Shown here: positions 17,601 to 63,432 of the stretch, in pieces | Position numbering within the stretch: the first letter of the stretch is position 1 | Layout: every line of letters begins with the position of its first letter | From: Eledone cirrhosa | Lineage: Eukaryota | DNA length: 64,000 nucleotides | NCBI GenBank assembly: GCA_964016885.1 | Contig: OZ024754.1 | Span: 31,372,001-31,436,000 of the forward strand | Direction of reading: 5' to 3' | Position numbers and translations under genes: made by a program | Notes under the pieces: generated by a model | Databases searched by the model: none | Told to the model about the DNA's origin: nothing | The model's input: only the letters and a program-made list of their open reading frames with translations

Positions 17601-20600
17601 CCTGTACAATCTCTCTTTTTCTTGCCAGAGCTTGGAAATTCCGCCAGCTTGCAATTGATCTGTTAAATATTCTGTTGCGGCTTGATCATCAAACCCCCGT
17701 TAGTGCTGTGAATCTCTTTCTTAAAAATGCTGTTGATGATTCAATTAACGTTAGAGAGGTACGACAAGTTTTCCAGTTTTTTTTTCTATTCTGTATTATT
17801 TAACTCTTTAGCATTTACATTACTCTATAATTATTTCACATAATATTGAATCTTCAAGATTTTGATGTTATTTATTTTGAGAATAATACCTTCATGTCAG
17901 TATGAGTGGCCAGTTTGAACAGAAAGAAGTGAGAGAATTCTGGCCGGATATGGACGGTTTAAATGCTAAAGGGTTAAAGATCCCTTGTTTTGTTTTATTT
18001 ATTCATGTTTTCAACCTGAATCTCTTTCTATAAAAAAATGTCCTTGATAAAGTATATATATTGAAAATATATATTGTCATAACATGTCCTTGATAGGGTA
18101 TCATCATCATCATCATTTTACATCCACTTTTCCCTGCTTGCAAGGGTGGGATATTTTGAAAATATATATTGTTGTTGTAACATGTCCTTCATAGGGTATA
18201 TAAGCCCTTCATATTCCTTGTGTCCTTAAATAGAAAGAAAAAAGTTGAAAGTTGTGTTATTCTGATATAACATCTCTTCTTTTGTCATTTCCAGATATGT
18301 TTACTCTCATTAGTTGGAGTTTTCAAATTATTGAAAAGAAGACATCAAACACAAGAAATCAATGTAAAAGAGCTAGCTGAATGTTCACCATCTGTGTCCA
18401 GTGATGCCGAATTCCATCCTTGTTGTCGGGATGATAATATGTGGCTTACATACAACATTGAAAAGCTACCAAAAACTGAAGATGCTTGGAACCAAACCAC
18501 TTTTATTGAAAAAACACATTTTGGTTTCTATTGTTGGCCAAAGTAAGTAACATTTATTCTTTAGGGTTGTAACTTTATAACAACTATATTTTTTTTATTA
18601 TTTCACATCCATTTTGGGTGGTAGATGTATTCCATTGCCCAGATTAGCATCACCACTTGGTCCTTGAGTGTCTTTAGCAGAGTCTACTCTGTTATAAGTA
18701 TTTGGGCCAACTCTCTCGATCAAATCCTTACAACCACTAGTGTTAGTTCCTGCACAAGATTATTGCGATTGCCTTTCTTTCTCAGATTTAGCCATGAAAA
18801 AAAAATAGCTTTATAAAATTGTTTACTTAAATAAGTGTTGCTGTAATGGCCCACACCTATGTTGGTTTAACTGCTCCTTTAATACCACTGCATGGGGTTA
18901 CATCTCCTAGTAAATCTCTTATGTTAGTAATAGAAAATACTCAGTCTTGTCATACATACAGTGTTTATGATTGTAACAGAGTTGTAACTAACCGACTAGT
19001 TACTATATTATCTACAAACTGAATGGTGAGAAATTTCTACTGTATCACACAGGTCTGTCTGTCATATCACACAGCTCAGTCTACAGTATCACACAGGTCT
19101 GTCTGTCTGTCTGCAGTATCACCCTGATTTATATTACATATATTCAGAGAATATGTTTCTCTTATACAACACCATCAAGTAAAGTTAGTATTTACATATT
19201 TACTGCAGTTAACTACAATAATCTAACTAGAGAAAAAAATATCTGATATCAAATTCTATAACAGCTATGGAATTTACACCTGCAATGCTACAGAGTCACC
19301 TTAAGAATGAGCGCAACTATGCCTCTCCTGGTCTTGATGGTGTTACGTACCTGCTTCTCAAACGTGGTGGGTACTTCCTTCTGCACCAGCTATCACTCTT
19401 CTTTCAATTCTGTCTTAACAACGGTGCTACTCTGGAGCAGTGGAAAACTGCCGGTGTCATTCTTTTGTTCAAAAAAGATGACCTCACGTCGCCTGTCAAC
19501 TATTGTCCAGTCAGTCTTACTAGCTGCATTGCCAAACTGATGGAATTGTGTGTCAGAGAAGCACTCTGGAACTACTGGAACTCTCACAACCTTATCCGGC
19601 CCTCGCAATTTGGATTTATCGCTAACTCCAGCTGCTGTGTTCAACTTATCGAGTTTCTTGAAGACATCACCCGGATCACTGATGGCGGCTCATGGGTGGA
19701 TGTTGTTTACCTTGACTTTGCTAAAGCTTTTAATTCTGTGCCACACAAAAGACTTGTGGCAAAATTCTCTGCAATGGGTGTGAAAGATGATCTTTTTAAC
19801 TGGTTGAAGTCCTTCATTCTCAGTTGAAAAGAGGTAGTCACAGTTCTAGGACAGCATTCTTCATTCTGTGCAATGCCATCTGGTGTACTGCAGGATCTGT
19901 TCTTGGTCCCCTTTTGTTTGTTGCATATATTAATGACATAGATGCCAACTTAAAGAATGCCACAGTACTGAAATATGCAGATAACGTCAAGCTGTACCTT
20001 GAGATAAAAAGTATAGATCCTGAACACTATAGATCTTTCCTGCAATCAGACCTGGACACAATGCAGCAATGGATCACAGACTGTGGACAAGTGCACCACC
20101 ATGCATTTTTGGGGGAAAAACCCAGCGTCCACATACTCCCTCCACAACACTAATATCAAGAAGTCTTCTTGTGAATATGACCTGTGCATTACTGTCAGCA
20201 GCGATTTGAGTTGGACGAAGCACATTTCTAAAATTCTCAAGAAGGCCAAGGGTTTCTTGGCATCACTCAGCAAGACTTTTGTCAGCCGCTCTCCAGCTAT
20301 ATATTTAAAGCTGTATATAGCTATGGTGCAGCCATACTTGGAATTCACATCATCAGTCTGGAACCTCTATCTTGCTCAGAACATTGACCGCTTGGAAACT
20401 GTTCAGAGATGTGCAACCAAGCAAATACCCTCCATCAGACATCTACCATACTCTGAACGCCTTGCTTCCCTGGGCATGGATTCATTGAAGCTCCGACGTC
20501 TGGCAACTGACTTGGTAAACATGCACAAAATTATTTACCATCTTGCCAACAACAACCCTGAGCACCTTTTTGATTTCCATGTGTCTAACACACGTGGGCA

Positions 20601-35820: not shown

Positions 35821-36654
35821 CTAGCAGTGGTACCCGGCGTTGCACGGGATAAGGTATTTTGGAACGTGGGCCGCCAACAGACCTAATCGTGGAAAAACTG
35901 CATGCCTGGACAATATGTAAAGAAAATAAACCGAATACTAGATGGAACAGGAAAAATATAGGGGACCAAAAAGTTGAATTTTTTGATGTGCATAATATGC
36001 CTTGAAATTTCAGGAAAATCGGCTAGACGTAACGCCTCAAAAAGTCCCTAAAAAGCTGAAAAAATAAAGTTTTTCACCTAATGCGGGCCCTAGGCCATAA
36101 AAAAGGTTGGATTTTCTTTGCTCACGGTATGAAGAAGAGACTGACTAATACATAGTTACAATTTCAAGGAAATCGGTCTGACGTAACGACTCAAAAAACG
36201 CAGTTTTTCAACTAATGCGGTGATCATAAAGTTGAATTTTTTTATGTGCATAACATAAGTAATACACATGTAAACTTTGAAAAAAGTCGGTTGGGTACTT
36301 CTCGAGTTTTAGGGATTCAAACTCAGACACACACACACATATACAGACATCCTCGGGGAGGTGACGTAATGCAGACAGCCAGACATACAGACAGATATTA
36401 TAAGGGCGCGACGTTATATGTATGTATCTATCTAAAAAGAGAAAGACTAAGAATTATAGAGAGAGATCGCTAAATCGCCTAATGCGGTCCCTGGGGCATT
36501 GAAAATTTAAAATTTATTTTGCTCAGAACACTCCCTGAAACATAAGTATTACATGTGTAACGTTTGAAAACAGTCGGTTGGGTGTTTCTCGAGGTTTAGG
36601 GATTCAAACTCTCTCACACACACACACAGATATCCTCAGGTTTATATATATAGA
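35821..36654 (-). mobile_element. Non-autonomous Helitron
   Basis: Minus strand begins A|TCTATATATATAAA and ends with hairpin CCCGTGCAACGCCGGG followed by CTAG|T; internal duplicated blocks. Confidence 0.8.
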
Positions 36655-39600
36655 TATATAAACAAAGAGGGTGTGGTAAGATACCAGGTGGACCATAACG
36701 CACCAGAGTACTCAGTAGTAGAGTGAGGACCCCGATGGTTGAGCTCCGGCCGTTTTGAGAGCTAGGTTCGAACAGTTCGGATCTAGCTGTCGGGGTCCTG
36801 CCTCTTTTCCTATATATATATATATATATATGTCCAGAAATAGCCGTCGAAACGGCTTAAGCTATTAATTATAATTAATAGCTTATATGGTTTGGACACG
36901 TAACTCCGCCATATTGACATACGACGTTTCTATGACATTTCTTAAATATGACGGAGCCCATCCAACTTCTGAATACAGCAAATTTCTTCGAGAAAAGGAT
37001 TTTTAAAAAAATGAAGAATTGACACCAGTACCAGACTGGTATTTTTTTTATCGACCTTGAATGGATGAAAGGCAAAGTAGACATCAGCAGGATTTGAACT
37101 CAGGGCCGAAACGAATACCACAAAGTATTCTATTCGCCGTCTTAAAAATAAAAACATACCCCGAGAAAGGAAACTGGTTGGCAGGTGCACGGTATTCGAG
37201 AGAGACGCAGTTCGGTGACTGCCAACCACTTTTTTCCATTTCTAACGATATATTGATTTTCTAAGCTATTATTTACAACGATCGACTGTTGTTTTCTGCG
37301 TTTGGTATTCCCATATTTTCATAGAAAGAAACCTAGACGAGAGAAGATTCGTACACTTAATTATTACAGCAGAGAATGTTGGTGTTTCTAAATATGAGGT
37401 AAACGAAGACATCTTGGCTATTGTTTAGCCCCAGGCTAACCCTGGTTGAGCAGGTGTATGGTCAAACGCATTCCAGCCATTCTTTCTGGGATTATATTCC
37501 AAAACTAGACAATTCAATACTTGCTACATCTGTCGTGGAAATATATAGTGTTTCTGTTTGTATGGTTGACATGAACACAGCATGTTGGAATAGTTAAGAA
37601 GTTCGCATACTTATGCCTTGTAAGTTAAATTAGGTAGACGGAAACTGTTTGGAAGCCCAACTAATGGACAGTACCTGTAATTCAAAGGACCAGTCTTGTC
37701 ACACTCACACTGAATCTCTACGAATTACATCAAGGCTACTCGTTAATCTAACGAGCAGGCTATTCTGTTCATCGAACAACTGGTATACTCATCGTCGAAA
37801 CTGACGGCTGTCAGTCTCCAGTGAGTTAATAACAGGACACTGATTGAATTAACAAAACCAGGGGGAAAAACGATTTCAATTCTCTAGAGCGCTGGACTTC
37901 TCTCGGCAAAAGTCAGTGTGGATATAGCAGACAAAAGCACTCGTGACCACACCAAGTCGAATAGATGAATTTATTGTACAAAAGAGTCTTCTTTGAGAAA
38001 TGTTAAATTAATTTAATTTATTTTTCTGGTTCTAAGTTGGCTCTGAACCAAATTATTAAATTATCTATACGTGATCGCATCAAATGGCTAATGGGGAAAA
38101 TATTTAACGTGAGTGTCAAATACTCGCTCAAACATGTCATCAGACGATGTCTTTTAAAGATGTTTTATGTTGAATCAAACGTATCTTATTAATTTTATGT
38201 GAAAACAGCAATTTAAGGATTCTACATTTTAACATTTTATAAAACGGCGGAATTTTATAATTGGAATAAATTAGTTCAGATTATATTGTTTTAATTATAT
38301 TAGGTATCCTAGAGAAGCACCAAAATATTGTAATAAAAGGGTTGCAGTTTATTATTTCAGTAGATTGACATTGTGAGTTCAAATCCTGCCGAAGTTAGCT
38401 TCGCCTTTCATTCTTACGAGGTTGATAAAATAAAGTACCAGTAACGCGCTGGGGTCGATTTAATCGACTTTCCTCTTCCCTTGAATTGCTGGCCTTGTAC
38501 CTAATGTAGAAACCCTTATTTCGGTAGATTGACCGTATAGTTACGTTATGGGTTCAAACCCTGCAGAGGTTAGTTTTGCCATTCACCCTTACGGGGTCGA
38601 TAAAATAAAAGTACCAGTAATGCACTGGCGTCGATTTAATCGAATCCCCCCCTTCTCAAAATATTGTTGACCTTGTACCTAAATCAAAAACGATACTCTA
38701 ATGGCTACCCCCGTTATCAAACACTGCCTATTATTTTCAAATATTTTTTGAAAATAAAATATTTGGTGAGATTTAATAACTAACTTTCTCATTATTAAGT
38801 TAGTGTTTGGAACATAACTTAACAAAGGTTCTTACATAAAATGATGATGGAAGATCTGTTGGATAAATGTAAACACTTAAAAATAAACAGTTTTGTATTG
38901 TAGAACCAGGGTGGAGTTATCCAGCCTTTTGATATCAATAGTATCACTTATGAAGTTTTATTTTATTTTTATACTTCAACGGCCACCATGTTTTAAGCTG
39001 TCACTATATATTTTGCTTCTCTGATATATTTAGCTTATTAACTTCAGTTCAAATTAACCCTTTTGATTCTAAAACGCCTGAACCTACAACTTTAAAGTGT
39101 TTATATTTATCTAAAAACCTTCCATCATAATTTTATCTAAGAACCTTTAAGTGTTTCCCCGAGCACCAGCTTAATAACGAGAAAGTTTGTTATAGCACTA
39201 AATCTTCCCAAATTGTAATTATTTTCACAATTATTTAAAAATCATAGGCAGTGTTTTTCGGTGGAAATGCTTAAAGAGGGTTAAAGTATCATTTCTGAGG
39301 TTTCCGTCGCTATAGGGTTTGGTTAAATTAAGCATAGATGTTCGAATGACCACCCACTTGACTGACATATATCAACTTCAGTTTGAATTAATACTTTCAC
39401 AGACCACAATTAACTGTATAGAGACATCGTCATATTTCTATTTATTTAGGTCTAGACGGATAAAACAAATGCATTAATTCTTGTTAGAAAAAAAAAAATA
39501 TATATATATATGTGTGTAGAAGTTCTATTTAAATTGTTGGGATACAACAAGCAAATATTTTTATAACTGATATAAAGCACTCAAATTATTGAGTAAAAAT

Positions 39601-39796
39601 ACGATATATTAATAAATGGAAACTATATTTATAAAACCATATTTATTTCATTATACATATTCCAAGAACACCAAGTTAAATTATGGTGTGCTTTCATCAG
39701 ATAAAATATAATATAGACTATCCGGGAGCATCCAACAGAAATGGTCGCATTCTTTAAGGGTATGTCAATATTTATTTATAAAACTGCTCTATATTA

Positions 39797-39861
39797 TATT
39801 TTATCTGATGAAAGCACACCATAATTTAACTTGGTGTCCTTGAAATATGTATAATGAAATA
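39797..39861 (+). ncRNA. Minimal type I hammerhead ribozyme motif (Penelope-like)
   Basis: TATTTTAT-CTGATGA-AAGCACACCA-loop-TGGTGTCCTT-GAAA-TATGTA-TA-ATGAAATA. Confidence 0.7.
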
Positions 39862-40284
39862 AATATGGTTTTATAAATATAGTTTCCATTTATTAATATA
39901 TCGTATATATATATATATTAGAAAGTGAGGGTTTTTTACAAAATGAAAAATAACCGAGATGTCCTACACGAGTGAAAGTATAAAGAAAAAAAGATGAAAT
40001 CGAAAATGCAACTGGAGTTTTATTTTTTTTTTAATATATATATTTATTTGGTTCCTTTACCTGTTTTGCAGTTCTGCTTTTCAAAAGTAGAGTTGAGATG
40101 GAGGGTCTGTGGTTTTTCTCTCTATATATATATATTTCAGAAGATCCCGTTAAGGGCGAAAGCAGCGAATTTGTTCCCTTCTCTTCAAATTGTTGGCCTT
40201 GTACTTAAATAAAAAAAACATTACCCCCCAGACACACAACCACACACACACACATACACACCACTACAGTCACCATGTCCACAC

Positions 40285-52017: not shown

Positions 52018-52095
<78 letters not shown>

Positions 52096-52745
52096 ATGGA
52101 TTCAGTTTGATACTGGTTAGATCCTCACTCAACAGAGTACTCAATACTTGGGGTAGTAGCATATGGCTATATTATAAAGAATATATATATGGAGGTGTAT
52201 ATGAAATGCTGTCTTAGTCTACCACCAATTATATATATATGCTGAAACAGTCCTCGATAAGAGGTACCCTAACTCTTGAACTAGAGTAACTGAAAACAAT
52301 AACTCACATACCTATATCTATATATATATATATCTATATATATATATTTATCTATATATATATTTATATTCATAAAATAAATTTGATAGCCTGCTTCAAG
52401 TTACCTATATCATATTGTACAATTATGAATTTATACCTAATTTATTTATATATATAACAATGGCCTAAAAATATATTAAAAACAAGAAACATCTATTAGT
52501 TTGTTGCTTCAGTTATTGTAATTATATATATATATATATATATATAACGAAGCAAATGTGGTAAGGAACCAGGTGGACCATAACGCACCAAAGTACTCAA
52601 TACTTAGGGTAGTAGAGTGGGTAATAGGAATGAGTAGGACCCCGACAGCTGAGCTCAAGCCGTTTCGACGGCTAGTTCTGGACTAAAATTTAGTCCAGAA
52701 CTAGCCGTCGAAACGGCTTGAGCTCAGCCATCGGAGTCCTGCTCG

Positions 52746-52787
<42 letters not shown>

Positions 52788-52949
52788 CAAAATATTAATA
52801 AATGAAAACGTTCACATAATCAAAATATATGTTTTATTATATATATTTCGGAGGTACTGTGCTGTTTTTTTCAGTACGTCCTTCCAGTATTGACTGCCAA
52901 TACTGGAATTGAACTATCAAGACAGTTGAGGTATGTCATACATCAATTC

Positions 52950-53022
52950 ATATATTTTATCTGATGAGGACGTACTGAAAAAAACAGGACAGTACCTCCG
53001 AAATATATATAATAAAACATAT
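52950..53022 (+). ncRNA. Minimal type I hammerhead ribozyme motif (Penelope-like)
   Basis: Stem I ATATATTTTAT/ATAAAACATAT, core CTGATGA (52961-52967), stem II GGACGTACTG/CAGTACCTCC, GAAA (53000-53003), palindromic TATATA, cleavage triplet ATA. Confidence 0.75.
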
Positions 53023-53948
53023 ATTTTGATTATGTGAACGTCTTCATTTATTAATATTTTGAATAATATTACTAACTCCAGAAAACTTTCTGTAGAGTGC
53101 TTTTAATCTATTGTAAAACTATATTCATTGAGTAATCAATGAACCATATTAATCTTTGGTTATATATATATATATATATATATAGTGTGTCCAAAAAGTC
53201 ACTAGGGTATTTAAACATTTATTATAATATATATGCATGGTTTTTCTGCCTATAATTAGAAATCATTACTATTATACATGCATGATATTTGACTTTTTAA
53301 TACTTGGCTGATTTTTGGGACACCCACACCCTGTATATATTAACATTGTATTCTTCAGACTAAATCCTCAAAAGCCACCCTAATATTGTTGCTGTGATTG
53401 TTTCAATCCCAGTAAATCTGAGGACATATATCATATTTGTTGTGTTATCACTATTGGTATGTCACTATATCCCAGATCCCAGGTGATATAGGGAGACACT
53501 GCTAATATTTCGAGTATTGATGTGTGCCCTAAATCACAGGAGATATAGGGAGACACTGACTGTATTTTGACAATTGATGTGTGCCCTAAATCCCAGGAGA
53601 TATAGGAGACACTGGTTGTATTATGATTATTGATGTGTCCTTATATCCCAGTAGATGAGGGTAGACAGTGGTTGTATTTTAACCACATGTGCCTTCCCAA
53701 TATCCCAAAAGATACAAGTACACATCAATAGTTACAATACAACAGGTATTTTCTTGTGTTTGCTGAAATATAGGGACATGTATTTTGACTGTTGCTGTGT
53801 TCCCTATATCCCTAGATACAGAGAACATTGGTTGTATTGGGGACATTAGTGTATCTCAATTTCCAGGACACCATTGGAGTGGTCCTTTATATCACAGCAG
53901 ATAAAGGATCACGTCCACCAGTTGTTTTTCATTTGGTGTTTTCACCAT

Positions 53949-54164
53949 TCAGCTATCACAGTAGCAGAATTTCTTCAGGGCTAATTCATCTATACACCTG
54001 GACTGGTTTCCATAGCTGCTTACTCGACTGATCTCATTCATTAAGCTAAAGGTGTCTTCTTGTTCATTAAATCTGGCTGTCACCTCAAATAAAGCTTCAC
54101 CTGGGCTGGTTTTCACCATCAGTTGGTAATCAACAATAGCACTGACACGGCTACCATAGTAGAC
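53949..54164 (-). CDS. DUF229 protein, last coding exon (VYYGSRV...TSPGEALFEVT...KKFCYCDS*)
   Basis: TAG acceptor, 72 codons ending in TGA; typical DUF229 C-terminus. Not present in the ORF track. Confidence 0.9.
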   Translation of the reverse strand, partial: VYYGSRVSAIVDYQLMVKTSPGEALFEVTARFNEQEDTFSLMNEISRVSSYGNQSRCIDELALKKFCYCDS

Positions 54165-57100
54165 CTAACAAAAGACAGAAAGAAGAAATAAAAACATTAC
54201 AGAAATGATGTCTCTTGTGAAAAAATATCTCAGAGTGACCAGGTCACAGACAGTGTAACAGAATATCTCAGAGTCTACTGTCTTAGTGACTAGGTCACAG
54301 ACAGTGTAACATAATATCTCAGAGTCTACTGTCTTAGTGACTAGGTCACAGACAGTGTAACAGAATATCTCAGAGTCTACTGTCTTAGTGACTAGGTCAC
54401 AGACAGTGTAACAGAATATCTCAGAGTCTACTGTCTTAGTAACTAGGTCACAGACAGTGTAACATAATATCTCAGAGTCTACTGTCTTAGTGACCAGGTC
54501 ACAGACAGTGTAACAGAATATCTCAGAGTCTACTGTCTTAGTGACCAGGACACAGACAGTGTAACAGAATATCTCAGAGTCTACTGTCTTAGTGACTAGG
54601 TCACAGACAGTGTAATAGAATATCTCAGAGTCTACTGTCTTAGTGACTAGGTCACAGACAGTGTAACAGAATATCTCAGAGTCTACTGTCTTAGTGACTA
54701 GGACACAGACAGTGTAACAGAATATCTCAGAGTCTACTGTCTTAGTGACTAGGTCACAGACAGTGTAACAGAATATCTCAGAGTCTACTGTCTTAGTGAC
54801 CAGGACACAGACAGTGTAACAGAATATCTCAGAGTCTACTGTCTTAGTGACCAGGTCACAGACAGTGTATCAGAATATCTCAGAGTCTACTGTCTTAGTG
54901 ACCAGGACACAGACAGTGTAACAGAATATCTCAGAGTCTACTGTCTTAGTGACCAGGTCACAGACAGTGTAACAGAATATCTCAGAGTCTACTGTCTTAG
55001 TGACTAGGTCACAGACAGTGTAATAGAATATCTCAGAGTCTACTGTCTTAGTGACTAGGTCACAGACAGTGTAACAGAATATCTCAGAGTCTACTGTCTT
55101 AGTGACTAGGTCCCAGACAGTGTAACAGAATATCTCAGAGTCTACTGTCTTAGTGACCAGGTCACAGACAGTGTATCAGAATATCTCAGAGTCTACTGTC
55201 TTAGTGACTAGGTCACAGACAGTGTAACAGAATATCTCAGAGTCTACTGTCTTACTGACTAGGTCACAGACAGTGTAACAGAATATCTCAGAGTCTACTG
55301 TCTTAGTGACTAGGTCACAGACAGTGTAACAGAATATCTCAGAGTCTACTGTCTTAGTGACTAGGTCACAGACAGTGTAACAGAATATCTCAGAGTCTAC
55401 TGTCTTAGTGACCAGGACACAGACAGTGTAACAGAATATCTCAGAGTCTACTGTCTTAGTGACCAGGTCACAGACAGTGTATCAGAATATCTCAGAGTCT
55501 ACTGTCTTAGTGACCAGGACACAGACAGTGTAACAGAATATCTCAGAGTCTACTGTCTTAGTGACCAGGTCACAGACAGTGTAACAGAATATCTCAGAGT
55601 CTACTGTCTTAGTGACTAGGTCACAGACAGTGTAATAGAATATCTCAGAGTCTACTGTCTTAGTGACTAGGTCACAGACAGTGTAACAGAATATCTCAGA
55701 GTCTACTGTCTTAGTGACTAGGTCCCAGACAGTGTAACAGAATATCTCAGAGTCTACTGTCTTAGTGACCAGGTCACAGACAGTGTATCAGAATATCTCA
55801 GAGTCTACTGTCTTAGTGACTAGGTCACAGACAGTGTAACAGAATATCTCAGAGTCTACTGTCTTAGTGACTAGGTCACAGACAGTGTAACAGAATATCT
55901 CAGAGTCTACTGTCTTAGTGACCAGGACACAGACAGTGTAACAGAATATCTCAGAGTCTACTGTCTTAGTGACTAGGTCACAGACAGTGTAACAGAATAT
56001 CTCAGAGTCTACTGTCTTAGTGACTAGGTCACAGACAGTGTAACAGAATATCTCAGAGTCTACTGTCTTAGTGACCAAGTCACAGACAGTGTAACAAAAT
56101 ATCTCAGAGTCTACTTTTGTCTTTCATTCTTACTGGGTGGATAAAATAAAGTACCAGTAACATACTGGAGTCGATTTAATCGACTTTCCCCTTCCCTTCA
56201 AATTACTGGCTTTGTGCCTAAATTAGAAACAACTATTATAGATCATCTCTAAAAACAGCACTGCACATTTGAGTTCAAATCCCACTGAGGTGAACTTGCT
56301 ATACTTTTGGTGTTGATACAATAAATTGCTAGTGTAGCGAAGTGACTATATATCTCCCTGCAAATAAAGTACCAGTGATGCACTGGGGTAATCGCTGGCC
56401 TTGTGCCAAAAGTAGAAACTAAGGGCGGTGGATTGGCAGTATCGGTAGAGCATCAGACGCCATGCTTTGCAGCATAGAGTTACGGCCCTTTGCGACCTGA
56501 GTTCAAATCCGCCGAGGTTAAACTTTGCCTTTGTATCTTTATGAGGTCGATAAAATAAAAGTACCAGTGATGCACTGGGGTAATTGCTGGCCTTGTGCCA
56601 AAAGTAGAAACTATATATCTCCCTGCCACCACCACCCGAAGACAATGCCCTTCATCCATTCCAGGTTGATAAAGAAGTACCATTCAAGTACTGAGGTCGA
56701 TCCTTCCTCCATATCTCTCTCACTTTCTATCTCCCCCACCCCCCACCCCAAGAAATCTGTTATATTCAGACCTGGGGAGGGGATGGGCTCTGCCAGATCT
56801 TAAAAAAATGCCCTAGATACGCTGATGTCAATATGGTGGTGGTGGTGGTGGTGATGGTGGTGGTACTGCTGGTGGTGGTGCTGGTGGTGGTGGTGGTGAT
56901 GGTAGCGGTGGTGATGGTGGTGGTGGTGGTGGTGATGGTAGCGGTGGTGATGGTGCTGCTGGTGGTGGTGATGGTGCTGGTGGTGGTGGTGGTGGGAGTG
57001 GTGCTGGTGGTGGTGGTGGGAGTGGTGCTGCTGGTGGTGGTGGTGGTGGTGGTGGTGGTGATGGTAGCGGTGGTGATGTTGGGAGTGGTGCTGGTGGTGG

Positions 57101-60100
57101 TGATGGTAGCGGTGGTGCTGCTGCTGGTGGTGGTGGTGGTGGTGGGAGTGGTGCTGCTGGTGGTGTTCGTGGTGGTGCTGCTGCTGGTGGTGGTGGTGGT
57201 GGTGATGGTAGTGGTGGTGATGGTGGGAGTGGTGCTGCTAGCGGTGGTGGTGGTGGTCGTGCTGGTGGTCGTGGTGGTGTTGCTGCTGCTGGTGGTGGTG
57301 GTGGTGGTGGTGGTGGTGATGGTAGCGGTGGTGCTGCTGCTGGTGGTGGTGGTGGTGCTGCTGGTGGTGGTGGTCGTGGTGGTGCTGCTGCTGGTGATGG
57401 TAGTGGTGGTGGTGGTGGTGGTGGTCATGGTGGTGAGCTGCTGCTGGTGGTGGTGGGAGTGGTGCTGCTGGTGGTGGTGGTGGTGGTAGTGGTAGCGGTG
57501 GTGATGGTGATGGTAGTGGTGCTGGTGCTGGTGGTGGGGGTGGAGGGGAATATGAAGGTGAAACCAAAAGCACTAATTTATAACTGAAAACTCCAGCAGA
57601 TGTCACCCCCCCCCTTCCTCCCCCAGTTGCGACATATATGAAATAACATAAATTAAGTTAATGACATTCTTCGTTAAGAAATTACAAGAAATTGGTGGAG
57701 TTGGCGAAAACAGGATATAACTACTTAAAGGTTCTCTGGAGAAATGTAATAGTGGAGGCAGTAGTAGTGGTGGTTGTGGTAGTAGTACTGGCGGTGGTGG
57801 TGGTGTTGGTGGTAGTGGTTGTGGTGTTGGTGGTAGTGGTTGTGGTGTTGGAGGTAGTGGTTGTGGTATTGGAGGTAGTGGTTGTGGTGTTGGTGGTAGT
57901 GGTTGTGGTGTTGGTGGTAGTGGTTGTGGTGTTGGAGGTAGTGGTTGTGGTGTTGGTGGTAGTGGTTGTGGTGTTGGTGGTAGTGGTTGTGGTGTTGGAG
58001 GTAGTGGTTGTGGTGTTGGTGGTAGTGGTTGTGGTGTTGGAGGTAGTGGTTGTGGTGTTGGTGGTAGTGGTTGTGGTGTTGGAGGTAGTGGTTGTGGTGT
58101 TGGTGGTAGTGGTTGTGGTGTTGGTGGTAGTGGTTGTGGTGTTGGAGGTAGTGGTTGTGGTGTTGGTGGTGGTGGTAGTGGTTGTGACAATGTCATCATC
58201 ATTATCACTTGTTGGGAAGGGTTGGACTTTATGTAAGCAAAAATATTTGTAAATACATTGAAATATGATTTACCATCAGAACTTGGTTAGTTTCCCCACA
58301 AAATAAACTTCAGAAAATATGCCACAGTTATTTATTGACAGAGGTCAAGGACGTCCCCCCCCCCCCGATAATGTTTGCCACTTATTATCATTACTAGGTC
58401 GTTACCAGTCATACGTACGCTCACACGCACTACATAAATATGTACATACATACACTCACATACATATATACTTGCATACATACAGATACATATATACACA
58501 CACACATATACATGCTTGAATACATACATTTACTTATCATAATCAATATTAGCATTTTCTAATAAAATCAATATTTCAATGTATTTTAATTTGTTTTATT
58601 TTATTTTTTAATAAATTAATTTTAAAAACAGCAACTCTACCTTCTGGTTCAGCACATCATTCAAACTTTTCTGAAATCTTAAAATTTTATCAGTTGGCAG
58701 TTGCTTGGTAGCATCAGAAATGGCTTGGACTTGTAACAGGGCACACTTCTCTCTAAATGGGAGAGTTAATTTATTGATCTTGTCCACGAGGCTCTGTGCT
58801 ATCTTCTCGACAACTTTGTCAGTCACGTCGACAGACACCTGCTTTAGGCATGTGCACCAGTGAGGTGCGATACTTGCATTGGCACAGGAACGAGATTTAG
58901 GCACCTCTCGGAACACACTGATGCCTCTCTGTTTCACAGATGCCTCGCGTACCTGGGGAAAGAAACACAAAAATAATATAAGGATTCAAATAAGAGGATT
59001 TAACCCTTTTAATATCAAATTACTTGAAAATGTCCTCGATTTTTATGATACAGAACTGTTTGAATATATCATCATCATCAACATTTGATATTCATTTTTC
59101 CATGCTAGCATGGGTTAGACGAGTTGTCTCGATTTGAGAGACAAATCAGATTAGATGACCATGTCTTGCTCATGCAAAACTGCTTTTGGCTTGGTTTCTA
59201 TGACCAAATACCCTTCCTAAAACCAACCACATTTTGGAAATATACTTATCTAAAACCCCTCCATCACAATTTTATGTAGGCACCTATATTAAGTTGTGTA
59301 CACCAGCTAAATAATGAGAAAAGGATGACCCATCCAATCCTTGCTAGCAAAGAATACAGACATTGAATGTAACTGTTGCTAGCAGAGAAAACATACGTTA
59401 AATGATGATGATACCCATATATATCTAATACTACAATATCCATGTAGTATTAGATATGTTTTTTTAAAGAAAGTAGAGTATGATTTAAAGATAATTTATC
59501 TGCTATTTCTAGCATGTCTAGTGACCACATAAAAGCTCCCTTGTTGACTTGGTATTTATTTTCAGTGAATTTCATGGGCCATAAATTTTCATCTTATTTG
59601 CAGCCTCTTGAACTGTAGCGCCATTAAAATGGTGCCAAATTTGACTGTTGAGTCATCACAAATCTATAAACCTCATTCAGTTCAAACTAAAATATTTGAA
59701 TTCTTTGTGCAGTTTAATTTCCATTGTACAGTGGCCGTTGTATAGCAGGAAATATGTGTGCACAAATATGCAAAGACCCGCAACTAAGAGGAAACATTCT
59801 CTGTGTGCATTTCATGCAGCTGATTCTTGTGATCTACCAAACCATATTCCAATGCATGTGTTCTGGTTGGTTCGTGTTGAGGAAGAATGAGTGTGATGGA
59901 AATGAATGTGGAAGGAAATAGAGAAAGGAGAAGACCAAGAAAGATGAAGGAAGAAATGAAAGCTAGGTGGTTGGAGAGGGGGTCACAAAAGATAGGATAA
60001 AATGGAGAATCCTGTCATGAGGTCTGCAACCCTGTTTTATAAAAAAATAAAATGGTTTTAACCCTTTCATGACTATATTTCTAATGAAATACACTCTATT

Positions 60101-62197
60101 GAAATTAATTATGAATTTACTGAAATTTTTTCATTATTAATATAGTAATATAACATATGGTTCTTACATAAAATTATTTTTGAAGATTTTCATTTAAATT
60201 AGAACCCTTCAAAATGGGTGGTTTTGTCTCATAAAACCAGAGTCAGTTTTCGCCAGGTTGGTAAGGAAAGGGTTAAACAAAGTTAATCGAGTAAGGTATT
60301 TACTAAATTATTAACTATTTCATTACTAAGACTAGCAGAAAAACTACCCTCATGATATGATACATAAATTGTCTTCACTGGTGGCTTGCCTAATTGAAGT
60401 AACTGGTGATGTTCGAAGGTACTTGGTTGTTCCAGCGCATCAGCCTTGTCATCACCCGAGGAAACACTGCAAGTGTTCTGGCTTGCCTCAAAAATTATTA
60501 GAGAGGTTTTGCAGTGCTCCTCGTGATATCAGTATCTTTTGTTCTGGCACCCCTTTCACCTGCCTTTTGTTGTATGTGGTCCTAGATGTGTGTATTACCT
60601 GCTTGTGTGTTTTATCTATGACACAGGTGTTACATTTAGAGAGGTGAGTCTTAAAATGTTCTTACCTGTCCCATTAACATCTATGACACAGGTGCTATAT
60701 TTAGAGAGGCGAGTGTAAAAATGTTCTTACCTGTCCATCAAAATATAAGATGTCCACAAGTGTTTCATATATATCAAAAGGTGTAGTCAGATGGTTAGCA
60801 TTAGTTCTTAAAACTTTGTCCAGGTGAGGGTAACGTTTTTTAAACCAAGGTGGAAATATCAGAAACATAAAAGGTAAACGTTCTTCCAATTTACCCAGGT
60901 AAGTTGTACGAAACTTTCCAAACCTTGATCCATGATCACTATAGAAGAATACAACTGTGTTGTTAAGATGTCCTTCTTCAGACATTGTTTTGAAGAACTG
61001 TAAATATGGTTCATCTGCATAACCGACATTGTTAATATTTGAATGTGTGAGACCAGTTATAAACGCAAAACCAAAGTGAGGCTTATCACGATACGTTTTA
61101 CTGAAGTCATAGACATAACGTAAAACAAAGTCAGTCTCTAAACGATCTAAAATACAATGTTGGTTGGTCCAAAGATTTTTACTTCGTTGCAAGGCCAGAA
61201 AAATTGGCCTGTTGTAGTGATCACAGGGGGGTTCATGAAACCCAGCTTTCAAGTAATTAAAAATAGAGATGGCAGGAGCATCTTCAGCATAAAGAGTCAT
61301 GTAACCATTGTTAGAGAAATTTTTCCAGATGAACGAATAGTTGTCAAATGGTTTGCGGGAGAGTTTCTCAGTCCAAGGCAGCTCTTTAACATATCGACCA
61401 GCAGTCAGTGGGACGACATTTACAAACGTGTTATCAGCTACTTTATTGTAACCAGCCAGTTCATAGGCTCCAAGTGACTCCAGTATGTACTTGCGTGTAT
61501 GTTTCATTTGCCGAATGAAATTGAGTCGAGAAACAGAATCCACTCCAATCATTAAGACATTGAAATTCTCTTTAAGTTTTGGATTTCTTTTCTGGTGTTT
61601 ATGGAAGTATTTAGATCTCCGTTTTACTAAGTTCTTGTCCCGGATGATAAATGAGTGAAAGTTGCTGTACATAAGCCCACCACTTTCACTGTAACACACA
61701 ACTCGAACAAACTCATGCCTGCTCTTTGTATCATTTGTAAACCACACTCCATTTGGTACATATTCAAATTTAAAGTCTGATTTATCTTTCGGTCGAACTA
61801 TCGTCTGGTACTGGCATCGTTTGAAGTCCCTTAGTCCATAATATTTTATGGCTGTCCTATTAATTCTAATGTAATTATCTTCTTGGTAGGTTAACACAGG
61901 TTTGTCAGGACACTGTAACACTCCATTCAGCTTTATATAAGCTCTGACAGAAGGTTCAAATGGATTAAGATTTGGAATTCGGCAGTTTTCTGTTTCAACC
62001 AAAAACCCAGTGTACTCCAAGGAGTTTTGTGCTAAGTGAAATATTTTATCGATATCTCCACTGGCCGACAATATAACATGATGTGGGGGCATATATACAG
62101 TGAAGCTGAGAAATATCACCAAAGATATGGACAGGAGACATAGAAATAGGTTTTGATAATTTATTCGTCCTGATATTCTCCCATCATGTTGGCGAAA
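53949..62197 (-). CDS. DUF229-family protein (alkaline phosphatase/sulfatase-like superfamily), type II membrane anchor; 3 coding exons, start exon not located
   Basis: Spliced frame of 664 aa plus stop, with an N-terminal hydrophobic stretch (LFLCLLSISLVIFLSFTVY) and motifs NVLMIGVDSVSRLNFIR, YNKVADNT, FYSDHGSRFG, EERLPF, LTTPFDIYETL, HWCTC, and C-terminal KKFCYC. Confidence 0.9.
54225..56114. repeat. 51-bp minisatellite, about 37 copies
   Basis: Unit AGTGACTAGGTCACAGACAGTGTAACAGAATATCTCAGAGTCTACTGTCTT. Confidence 0.97.
56833..58185. repeat. (GGT)n cryptic triplet repeat (56833-57545) and a 21-bp GGTAGTGGTTGTGGTGTTGG(T/A) array (about 57755-58185)
   Basis: Read directly; both lie in a DUF229 intron. 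Confidence 0.93.
58641..58952 (-). CDS. DUF229 protein, internal exon (VREASVKQRGISVFREVPKSRSC...LNQK)
   Basis: CAG acceptor, GTAGAG donor, phase 0-0; RSCxxAxIxxHWCTC motif. Confidence 0.92.
60731..62197 (-). CDS. DUF229 protein, large exon
   Basis: TTTTTCAG acceptor at 62198-62199, open frame of 489 codons (covers ORF 60701..62122), GTAAGA donor at 60730. Confidence 0.92.
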
Positions 62198-63432
62198 CTG
62201 AAAAATACAAACAAAAAAAATCAGTGAAAGTTAATCACTGATAAATCAATGACTATTATAAGTCTGTGACAGCATCGAGGGTACAAATGAAACTTGTTGA
62301 AAAAATTTAACACGGTCTCTGATGTTGCATGATATGCCTAAAACTAAAGGTGAAAAATTAGTTGGAATATGAACTTTGTGACCATCTATTTCCGGGGTGT
62401 TTAGGGCCTGGGCAATGATTGGTCAGTGGAAAAACTTCAAAAGTACCCTTGAGATGCTGTTATAGACTGTAAAGACAAAACAAAACACACACATATATAT
62501 GCTTGTATACATACGCATACACATGTGTATATATGTGTGTGCCGGCATGGAGAGTGGACGTAAAATGTTGGAGATGATATATATATATACATATAAACAT
62601 ATATGTACACGTGTGTATTTATATATATATATACTCTCACACATACATACTCATACTCTCTAAAACCATATTCCAAAAATAGAATTTCTTTTACAACCCT
62701 ACATTTGCCAATCCCATTTACCTCTCTCACCCATAGAATTTGTCTCCAGCTTACATTTCCCCTCCTCGCCACCCCCATCTGAACTCTTGACCAGTCCATT
62801 AACACAATTGAGATACACACACATATATACATAAAATTTCCCTCTCCCTAAAAATAATTTTGTTCTATGTAAAAAAACACAACTATCACCGCTGCCACCA
62901 CTACTACTACTACTATGACTACCTCTTTCTCTATATACAGTATAAGATTCCATTTTGGATTCAGTCTTCTTCTTAGCAAGAAAAATGAACAAACCTGCCT
63001 CAACAATTAATTTTAAATCTTTAATTCTTTTTAAGTGTAATACTCAACATTTGATAAGATATATTTCACTGATACATCGAAACCGGTTATATTTTATATA
63101 CATTATAAAACTCCTTTTAAAAAAAATTGTTCCTTTCATTTTTTCAATAATGTCACTTTGACGAACCAAAGAAGAACAAAAGAAAAACAGATCCTTTAAC
63201 CCATTACCATTTACATTGCCCTATATTTACTATTGTATTTTCACGGTAAACACTTTATTTCATATAAATATATCACATAATATCGTATCTATGAGATTTC
63301 TATATTATTTATTTTGAGAACAATACCTTAACACAAGTATGAATGTCCAGTTATGGCTGGTTTGAACAGAAAGAAGTGAGAGAATTCTGGCCGGTTATGG
63401 CCGGTTTAAATATACTTTTCATGCTATTTCCA

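Follow-up and report, generated by a model that had tools for sequence, protein, structure and literature searches.

The closest described relatives of the sequence analysed here are the C-terminal EN+ Penelope-like elements (PLEs) of the Hydra clade, among them Hydra-1_Obim. According to the sections of Craig et al. (2021, PMC8557442) on which we draw, these elements encode an RT followed by an endonuclease, carry DKT, a CxCX5C linker and CxxC and CxH motifs around E and N, and combine a 3′ hammerhead with a (TA)n target and an inverted 5′ copy that bears a one-sided tail; the family described below shares these traits, its endonuclease being a putative one. Minimal hammerheads of metazoan PLEs are of type I with a long helix II and a palindromic helix III, occur in thousands of dispersed copies and show weak activity as monomers in the material taken from Cervera and de la Pena (2014, PMC4209133). 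The same source ascribes pairs of hammerheads on opposite strands, 100-700 bp apart, to truncated PLEs, a layout that recurs at our locus. Poseidon PAc of Anolis (Frangieh et al. 2024, PMC11167929) and Pen2a_Av of Adineta (PMC3846280) are described, in the parts of these papers used here, with a tail between two fixed ends, an AT-rich target, a TATA box and TCACT in the pLTR and a head-to-head inverted pLTR, all of which are found here as well. The rotifer work noted TATA and TCACT in the pLTR and proposed antisense self-priming (PMC3846280). In vitro, the lizard PLE used two internal RT starts bounding the tail and extended both strands, and its protein-assisted ribozyme was dispensable for insertion (PMC11167929). 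Metazoan non-LTR retrozymes, as characterized in the excerpts used (PMC7229834; preprint 10.64898/2026.07.22.740005), likewise have a type I hammerhead, are non-coding and are low in GC. The portion of an octopus repeat survey considered here counts Penelope-like families and names neither ribozymes nor Hydra (PMC13282606). Within the literature covered, Repbase and Dfam apart, octopus reports relating to the family were confined to Hydra-1_Obim and general PLE counts.

Here we describe an insertion in a stretch of 64,000 nucleotides from Eledone cirrhosa (contig OZ024754.1), referred to as the window, whose coordinates are used throughout. It is very probably a head-to-head pLTR insertion of a PLE with Hydra-clade motifs, with the leader likely copied twice at a (TA)n cut. 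The finding is an ordinary one, namely a new family of a known kind. The locus itself, one decayed copy among thousands, matters little. The family, however, adds a large cephalopod set of minimal hammerheads (more than 33,000 motif matches) that covary naturally and retain a C.C mismatch. The fixed ends provide exact coordinates at which the formation of inverted pLTRs and tails by Penelope elements can be tested.

Layout of the insertion

The insertion occupies 52780-53160 and is set between two (TA)n tracts (Table 1). A preliminary description had recognized a Penelope-type inverted pLTR next to (TA)n, which was borne out; the arms (52780-52882 and 52967-53069) are 103 nt long and 97% complementary. 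The bounds then given, 52784-53065, had to be revised, since the insertion reaches 91 nt beyond the earlier end. The inverted short arm runs to the family's short 3′ end. At its other end, the left arm carries the sequence of 52898-52908 and then jumps to 52968. Because 52882-52892 is an inverted copy of 52898-52908, the left arm starts close to the 5′ point of the direct arm, with 59 nt missing from its interior. The string at this head-to-head junction recurs identically in a second locus (L148). The inverted copy had been seen to break inside CUGAUGA; the arm is real, whereas a special meaning of the break was rejected, as it results from a private 59-nt deletion and other inverted arms break at varying positions. 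A-to-G hyper-editing of this copy was also rejected, as the two arms differ at three places only. Among contigs from four runs of one study, none spans the locus, though the repeat is deeply covered.

Table 1. Features of the insertion and its surroundings (window coordinates).
Feature	Position	Strand	Remark
(TA)19 target tract	52747-52784	none	left flank
Inverted short arm	52780-52882	-	copy of 52967-53069 lacking CUGAUG and the 5′ strand of stem I
Start of inverted arm	52882-52892	-	copy of 52898-52908, joined across the 59-nt internal deletion
Direct long arm	52893-53160	+	pLTR leader, from predicted start site to tail end
Predicted transcription start	52893	+	A of TCACT, inferred from motifs
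Minimal type I hammerhead	52950-53022	+	
Short 3′ end	53069	+	first fixed end point of the family
91-nt tail	53070-53160	+	with ACTC...GAGT motif at 53075-53098
(TA)12 target tract	53161-53184	none	right flank
DUF229 last coding exon and stop	53949-54164	-	context, outside the element

Structure and folding of the hammerhead

At base level, all parts claimed beforehand for a complete minimal type I hammerhead on the plus strand are present. Stem I pairs 52955-60 with 53012-17 (6 bp), followed by four outer pairs past an A.C mismatch, and abuts the core CUGAUGA at 52961-67. Stem II (52968-77 with 52990-99), previously given as 10 bp with one mismatch, has nine pairs and one C.C. GAAA occupies 53000-03, stem III is the palindrome ATATATAT at 53003-10, and the AUA triplet ends at 53011, after which the cut is predicted. 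CUGANGA, GAAA, NUH and helices I and II thus stand in type I order. Judged from its sequence, the palindromic helix III is predicted to allow a dimer, and its variant ATATGTAT would still pair via G.U. Unlike the minimal PLE hammerheads in the sections of PMC4209133 used here, the family combines a helix II of 10 bp with a C.C mismatch that is mostly retained, and A10.1-U11.1 occurs in several sister subfamilies. In a covariance-model search with Rfam, a check proposed in the preliminary description, the hammerhead families gave no match at this locus, and miRNA matches below gathering scores sit on the neighbouring palindrome.

The lowest-energy fold of the isolated monomer (−12.7 kcal/mol) is not a hammerhead, the hammerhead fold having −9.1 kcal/mol. 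This prediction agrees with the low activity that minimal hammerheads of this type are reported to show as monomers. In an RNA across the insert, pairing of the arms yields −179.6 kcal/mol against −114.1 kcal/mol for the best fold that retains the hammerhead, a difference of about 65 kcal/mol. Folding therefore predicts that the hammerhead of this copy is silenced by its own mirror arm. As the copy is without a TATA box and its ribozyme would be sequestered by the mirror arm in any read-through RNA, it is probably inert.

Genomic copies and conservation of the ribozyme

A pattern spanning stem I, core and stem III had 28,160 exact matches in the genome and its reversed form had none, so the motif is not due to chance. 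Stem II of the subfamily to which our copy belongs had 1,480 exact genome matches. A similarity search of the 3.0-Gb genome returned 1,999 candidates, 40 of which were scored, at 95-100% identity. Conservation was compared by pattern at one free position (N7) and one catalytic position (G5). With the rest of the pattern fixed, 5,366 N7 variants faced 622 G5 variants, the latter being about nine times rarer. Among the matches listed, N7 changes mostly comprised whole subfamilies, whereas G5 changes were scattered over subfamilies.

Covariation of stem II was seen between subfamilies: seven of the nine pairs were changed on both sides in 14 hand-picked sequences, which are related, so that shuffles overstate the significance. 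In 62 distinct variants, eight of the ten stem II positions paired in 49-60 and pair 8 in 48, and the C.C mismatch was retained in 56. Of the outer stem I pairs, four in number, two are disrupted in 11 of the 14 sequences; stems I and III provide no evidence of covariation because the search pattern fixed them. Conservation of the core across copies held in part. Within the subfamily, it was clear in copies selected by similarity (3/473 versus 168/5,634, p=0.001) and not clear in copies selected by their RT (8/231 versus 136/2,617, p=0.34). This mixed result is compatible with selection acting on master elements, followed by neutral decay of the inserted copies.

The parent element

The expected linkage of the arms to an RT was found at locus L060, where a sequence 99% identical to 52946-53069 is joined to a UTR of about 1 kb, an endonuclease recognized by its motifs and an RT. 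In some copies the upstream continuation consists of about 1.1 kb of UTR leading into the coding region. Loci L064 and L072 present the order pLTR with tail, ORF, UTR and pLTR, and locus L063 opens with the tail alone; the ORF of the parent element starts about 55 nt after the tail. Coding motifs were collected from 30 partly overlapping loci, sister subfamilies included, and comprise DKT (10/12), a CNCx5C linker, CxxC, CxH and YRDD. The position of the RWK motif reads RWR in seven of nine cases and RWK in none, a conservative change. The ORF can be aligned over its full length with five homologues of about 700 aa. Structural matches to the model of one of them (P0001, 36% identical, pLDDT 93.7) are telomerase RTs at ranks 1-4, and a telomerase-RT-like homologue profile aligns to a 750-aa frame of a sister subfamily with an E value of 8e-113. 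Pfam and PDB sequence searches with the ORF gave no significant RT or GIY-YIG match; the pattern of C-terminal motifs matches by eye that of published Hydra proteins, which points to a putative GIY-YIG endonuclease. No intact ORF of our subfamily was seen among the loci examined. A 935-aa open frame was rejected as such, as it represents the RT of this element fused to another inserted retroelement.

The parent is best filed as an EN+ PLE with Hydra-clade motifs, an assignment made by motifs with the references compared by eye. It differs from the Hydra clade, as far as the portions of PMC8557442 used here describe it, in having RWR for RWK and a tail of 91 nt where 30-40 were published, departures that count against the assignment. 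The hammerhead sequence, compared by eye, is not that of Hydra-1_Obim, and with its 3′ UTR of about 1.1 kb the unit exceeds the published length of <3 kb. In Poseidon PAc and Pen2a_Av, according to the same parts of the cited papers as above, the pLTR or tail overlaps the start of the ORF, in contrast to the spacing found here, and our stub begins at the initiator without a TATA box.

Further features were observed in particular loci. Asparagine-rich (AAT/AAC)n expansions lie between RT and endonuclease at L060:3081-4049 (-) and L075:4034-4816 (-) and resemble those reported for Adineta Penelope ORFs in the part of PMC3846280 used. A second hairpin-like motif, GCTC...GAGC, is located between tail and ATG at L064:5931-5991 (-) and L072:2556-2610, and in both loci a pyrimidine tract ending in AG precedes the ATG, a possible acceptor of a 5′ UTR intron as in other PLEs.

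Ends of the copies

In 45 loci, the first 30 of which had been chosen with a query reaching 53110, 29 of 78 arms ended at 53069 (−1/+2 nt) and 40 at 53156-53160. The family thus has two fixed 3′ ends 91 nt apart, 53069 and 53160, and at both of them the arms are mostly followed by (TA)n. A long arm combined with an inverted short arm was present in 23 of 30 tail-selected loci, making a single head-to-head pair the typical copy; no tandem hammerhead array exists at our locus. The 5′ ends in the same 30 loci clustered at 52884-52906 (36 of 59 arms), with two arms extending further upstream and 21 starting downstream; none (0/59) started at the cut site, 53012. With a second reference, 33 of 58 arms started within −3 to +15 of the start site. 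TATAAA is found 30 nt upstream of +1 in 20 of 27 distinct long-copy strings and 29 nt upstream in one, and is absent in six, the search having required the TCA-N-T motif and left TATA free; it is missing from the stub at 52780-53160. By eye, sister subfamilies have the same TATA and start motifs and the same starts. Junctions differ from copy to copy and contain small palindromes.

The ACTC...GAGT motif of the tail is common to sister subfamilies. The tail hairpin showed no covariation within the genome, and MFE folds recovered it in some copies only. Inspected by eye, the 3′ end of the coral element Hydra-2_Amil (supplement of PMC8557442, seen in excerpt) has GCTC...GAGC after the hammerhead, so that one compensatory change relative to ACTC...GAGT is possible.

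Origin of the head-to-head copies

Identity of the pLTR with that of RT- and endonuclease-bearing copies, fixed 3′ and clustered 5′ ends, (TA)n flanks and covariation in stem II support the reading of the locus as a pLTR insertion of a PLE. As the arms end at two fixed points and mostly begin at 52893, the stub likely consists of two 5′-leader cDNAs placed head to head. From the end data, the TATA and TCACT motifs of the rotifer element and the results obtained with the lizard PLE, we infer the following course. RNA of the element would start at +1 (52893), as predicted from motifs, and the GIY-YIG domain would nick both strands of (TA)n. The RT would then start at two internal sites (53160 and 53069) and run to the 5′ end of the RNA, and the two cDNAs of the sense leader would be joined by microhomology, the left arm losing its 59 nt during or after joining. 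Selection is likely to have maintained the ribozyme in master elements, where it would probably cut as a dimer or with the help of protein. The stubs could accordingly be a 'strong-stop' record, in which both strands of a single (TA)n cut prime on the sense leader at two sites 91 nt apart and the cDNAs run off at a capped +1; we judge the chances of this more specific proposal to be about even. The nearer of the proposed priming sites lies 5 nt before the ACTC...GAGT hairpin motif. Arms that begin downstream of the cluster (21/59) speak against leader run-off, as ordinary truncation would give them. If the strong-stop proposal is true, thousands of copies would map the start site and both RT starts of a clade that is not known to have been examined in vitro, and would speak for a sense template rather than antisense self-priming.

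Inversion of the same element by other routes is rather unlikely, albeit the strongest competitor; these would be fold-back or self-priming, with antisense RNA as one conceivable template, or twin priming with 5′ ends truncated at random. In its favour, the junctions contain small palindromes, one third of the 5′ ends are scattered, and self-priming on an antisense template has been proposed for head-to-head junctions in the section of PMC3846280 used here. However, the starts of both arms usually fall at +1 to +15 and leave the TATA box outside, a pattern not expected from an antisense template, and each arm has a fixed 3′ end of its own.

The preliminary description had favoured a separate non-autonomous element or retrozyme. 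A family of this kind (mini-PLE or retrozyme) that propagates itself, its transcripts being mobilised in trans, could account for the great number of short copies with shared ends, and non-autonomous PLEs and PLE-related retrozymes are known from the parts of the literature considered. We nevertheless regard it as improbable, since the same sequence is the pLTR of RT- and endonuclease-bearing elements and is linked to an ORF, junctions vary between copies, the stub is devoid of a TATA box and no arm starts at the cut site. Moreover, the typical copy is a single inverted pair, whereas retrozymes, in the excerpts cited above, are tandem repeats with a ribozyme in each unit. Least probable of all, and hardly to be expected, is co-option of our copy as a regulatory hairpin or ribozyme in the 3′ UTR of the DUF229 gene, where it had been tentatively placed. 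The element does lie 789 bp from the stop codon, and transcription of either strand would yield a hairpin of 103 bp. Against this, the mRNA of this minus-strand gene could carry only the antisense of the ribozyme and not the catalytic strand; the first AATAAA after the stop, at 53223 on the minus strand, precedes the element; and at least 1,480 copies of this subfamily exist.

Neighbouring gene and other repeats in the window

The DUF229 exons are located on the minus strand at 60701-62230, 58608-58985 and 53949-54164. The stop lies at 53949-51, as had been implied beforehand, but on the minus strand. The exon neighbouring the element is 93% identical to a protein labelled Octopus vulgaris by its source.

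A second, unrelated fold-back repeat resides in the same (TA)n cluster at 52546-52747 (-). It shows the same two-end layout, its tail being about 78 nt long and its short end lying close to 52624, and it carries a motif resembling ACTC...GAGT; its search yielded 3,288 candidates, and its contig depth is much higher. A canonical hammerhead in this palindrome family was rejected, since 42 mixed genome-wide matches contained no consistent motif. Diverged relatives of this repeat lie between (TA)n tracts at 36643-36863 and 52093-52300. A sister-subfamily stub at 39527-39912 contains two opposite hammerhead motifs, with a core at 39805 (+); its tail is on the left arm, and its direct arm starts at its own ACTA start. 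At 19231-19827, the window contains an RVT_1 fragment of another retroelement. The last DUF229 intron is filled by a minisatellite with 37 copies of a 51-bp unit and by long arrays rich in TGG, at 54234-56115 and 56834-58182.
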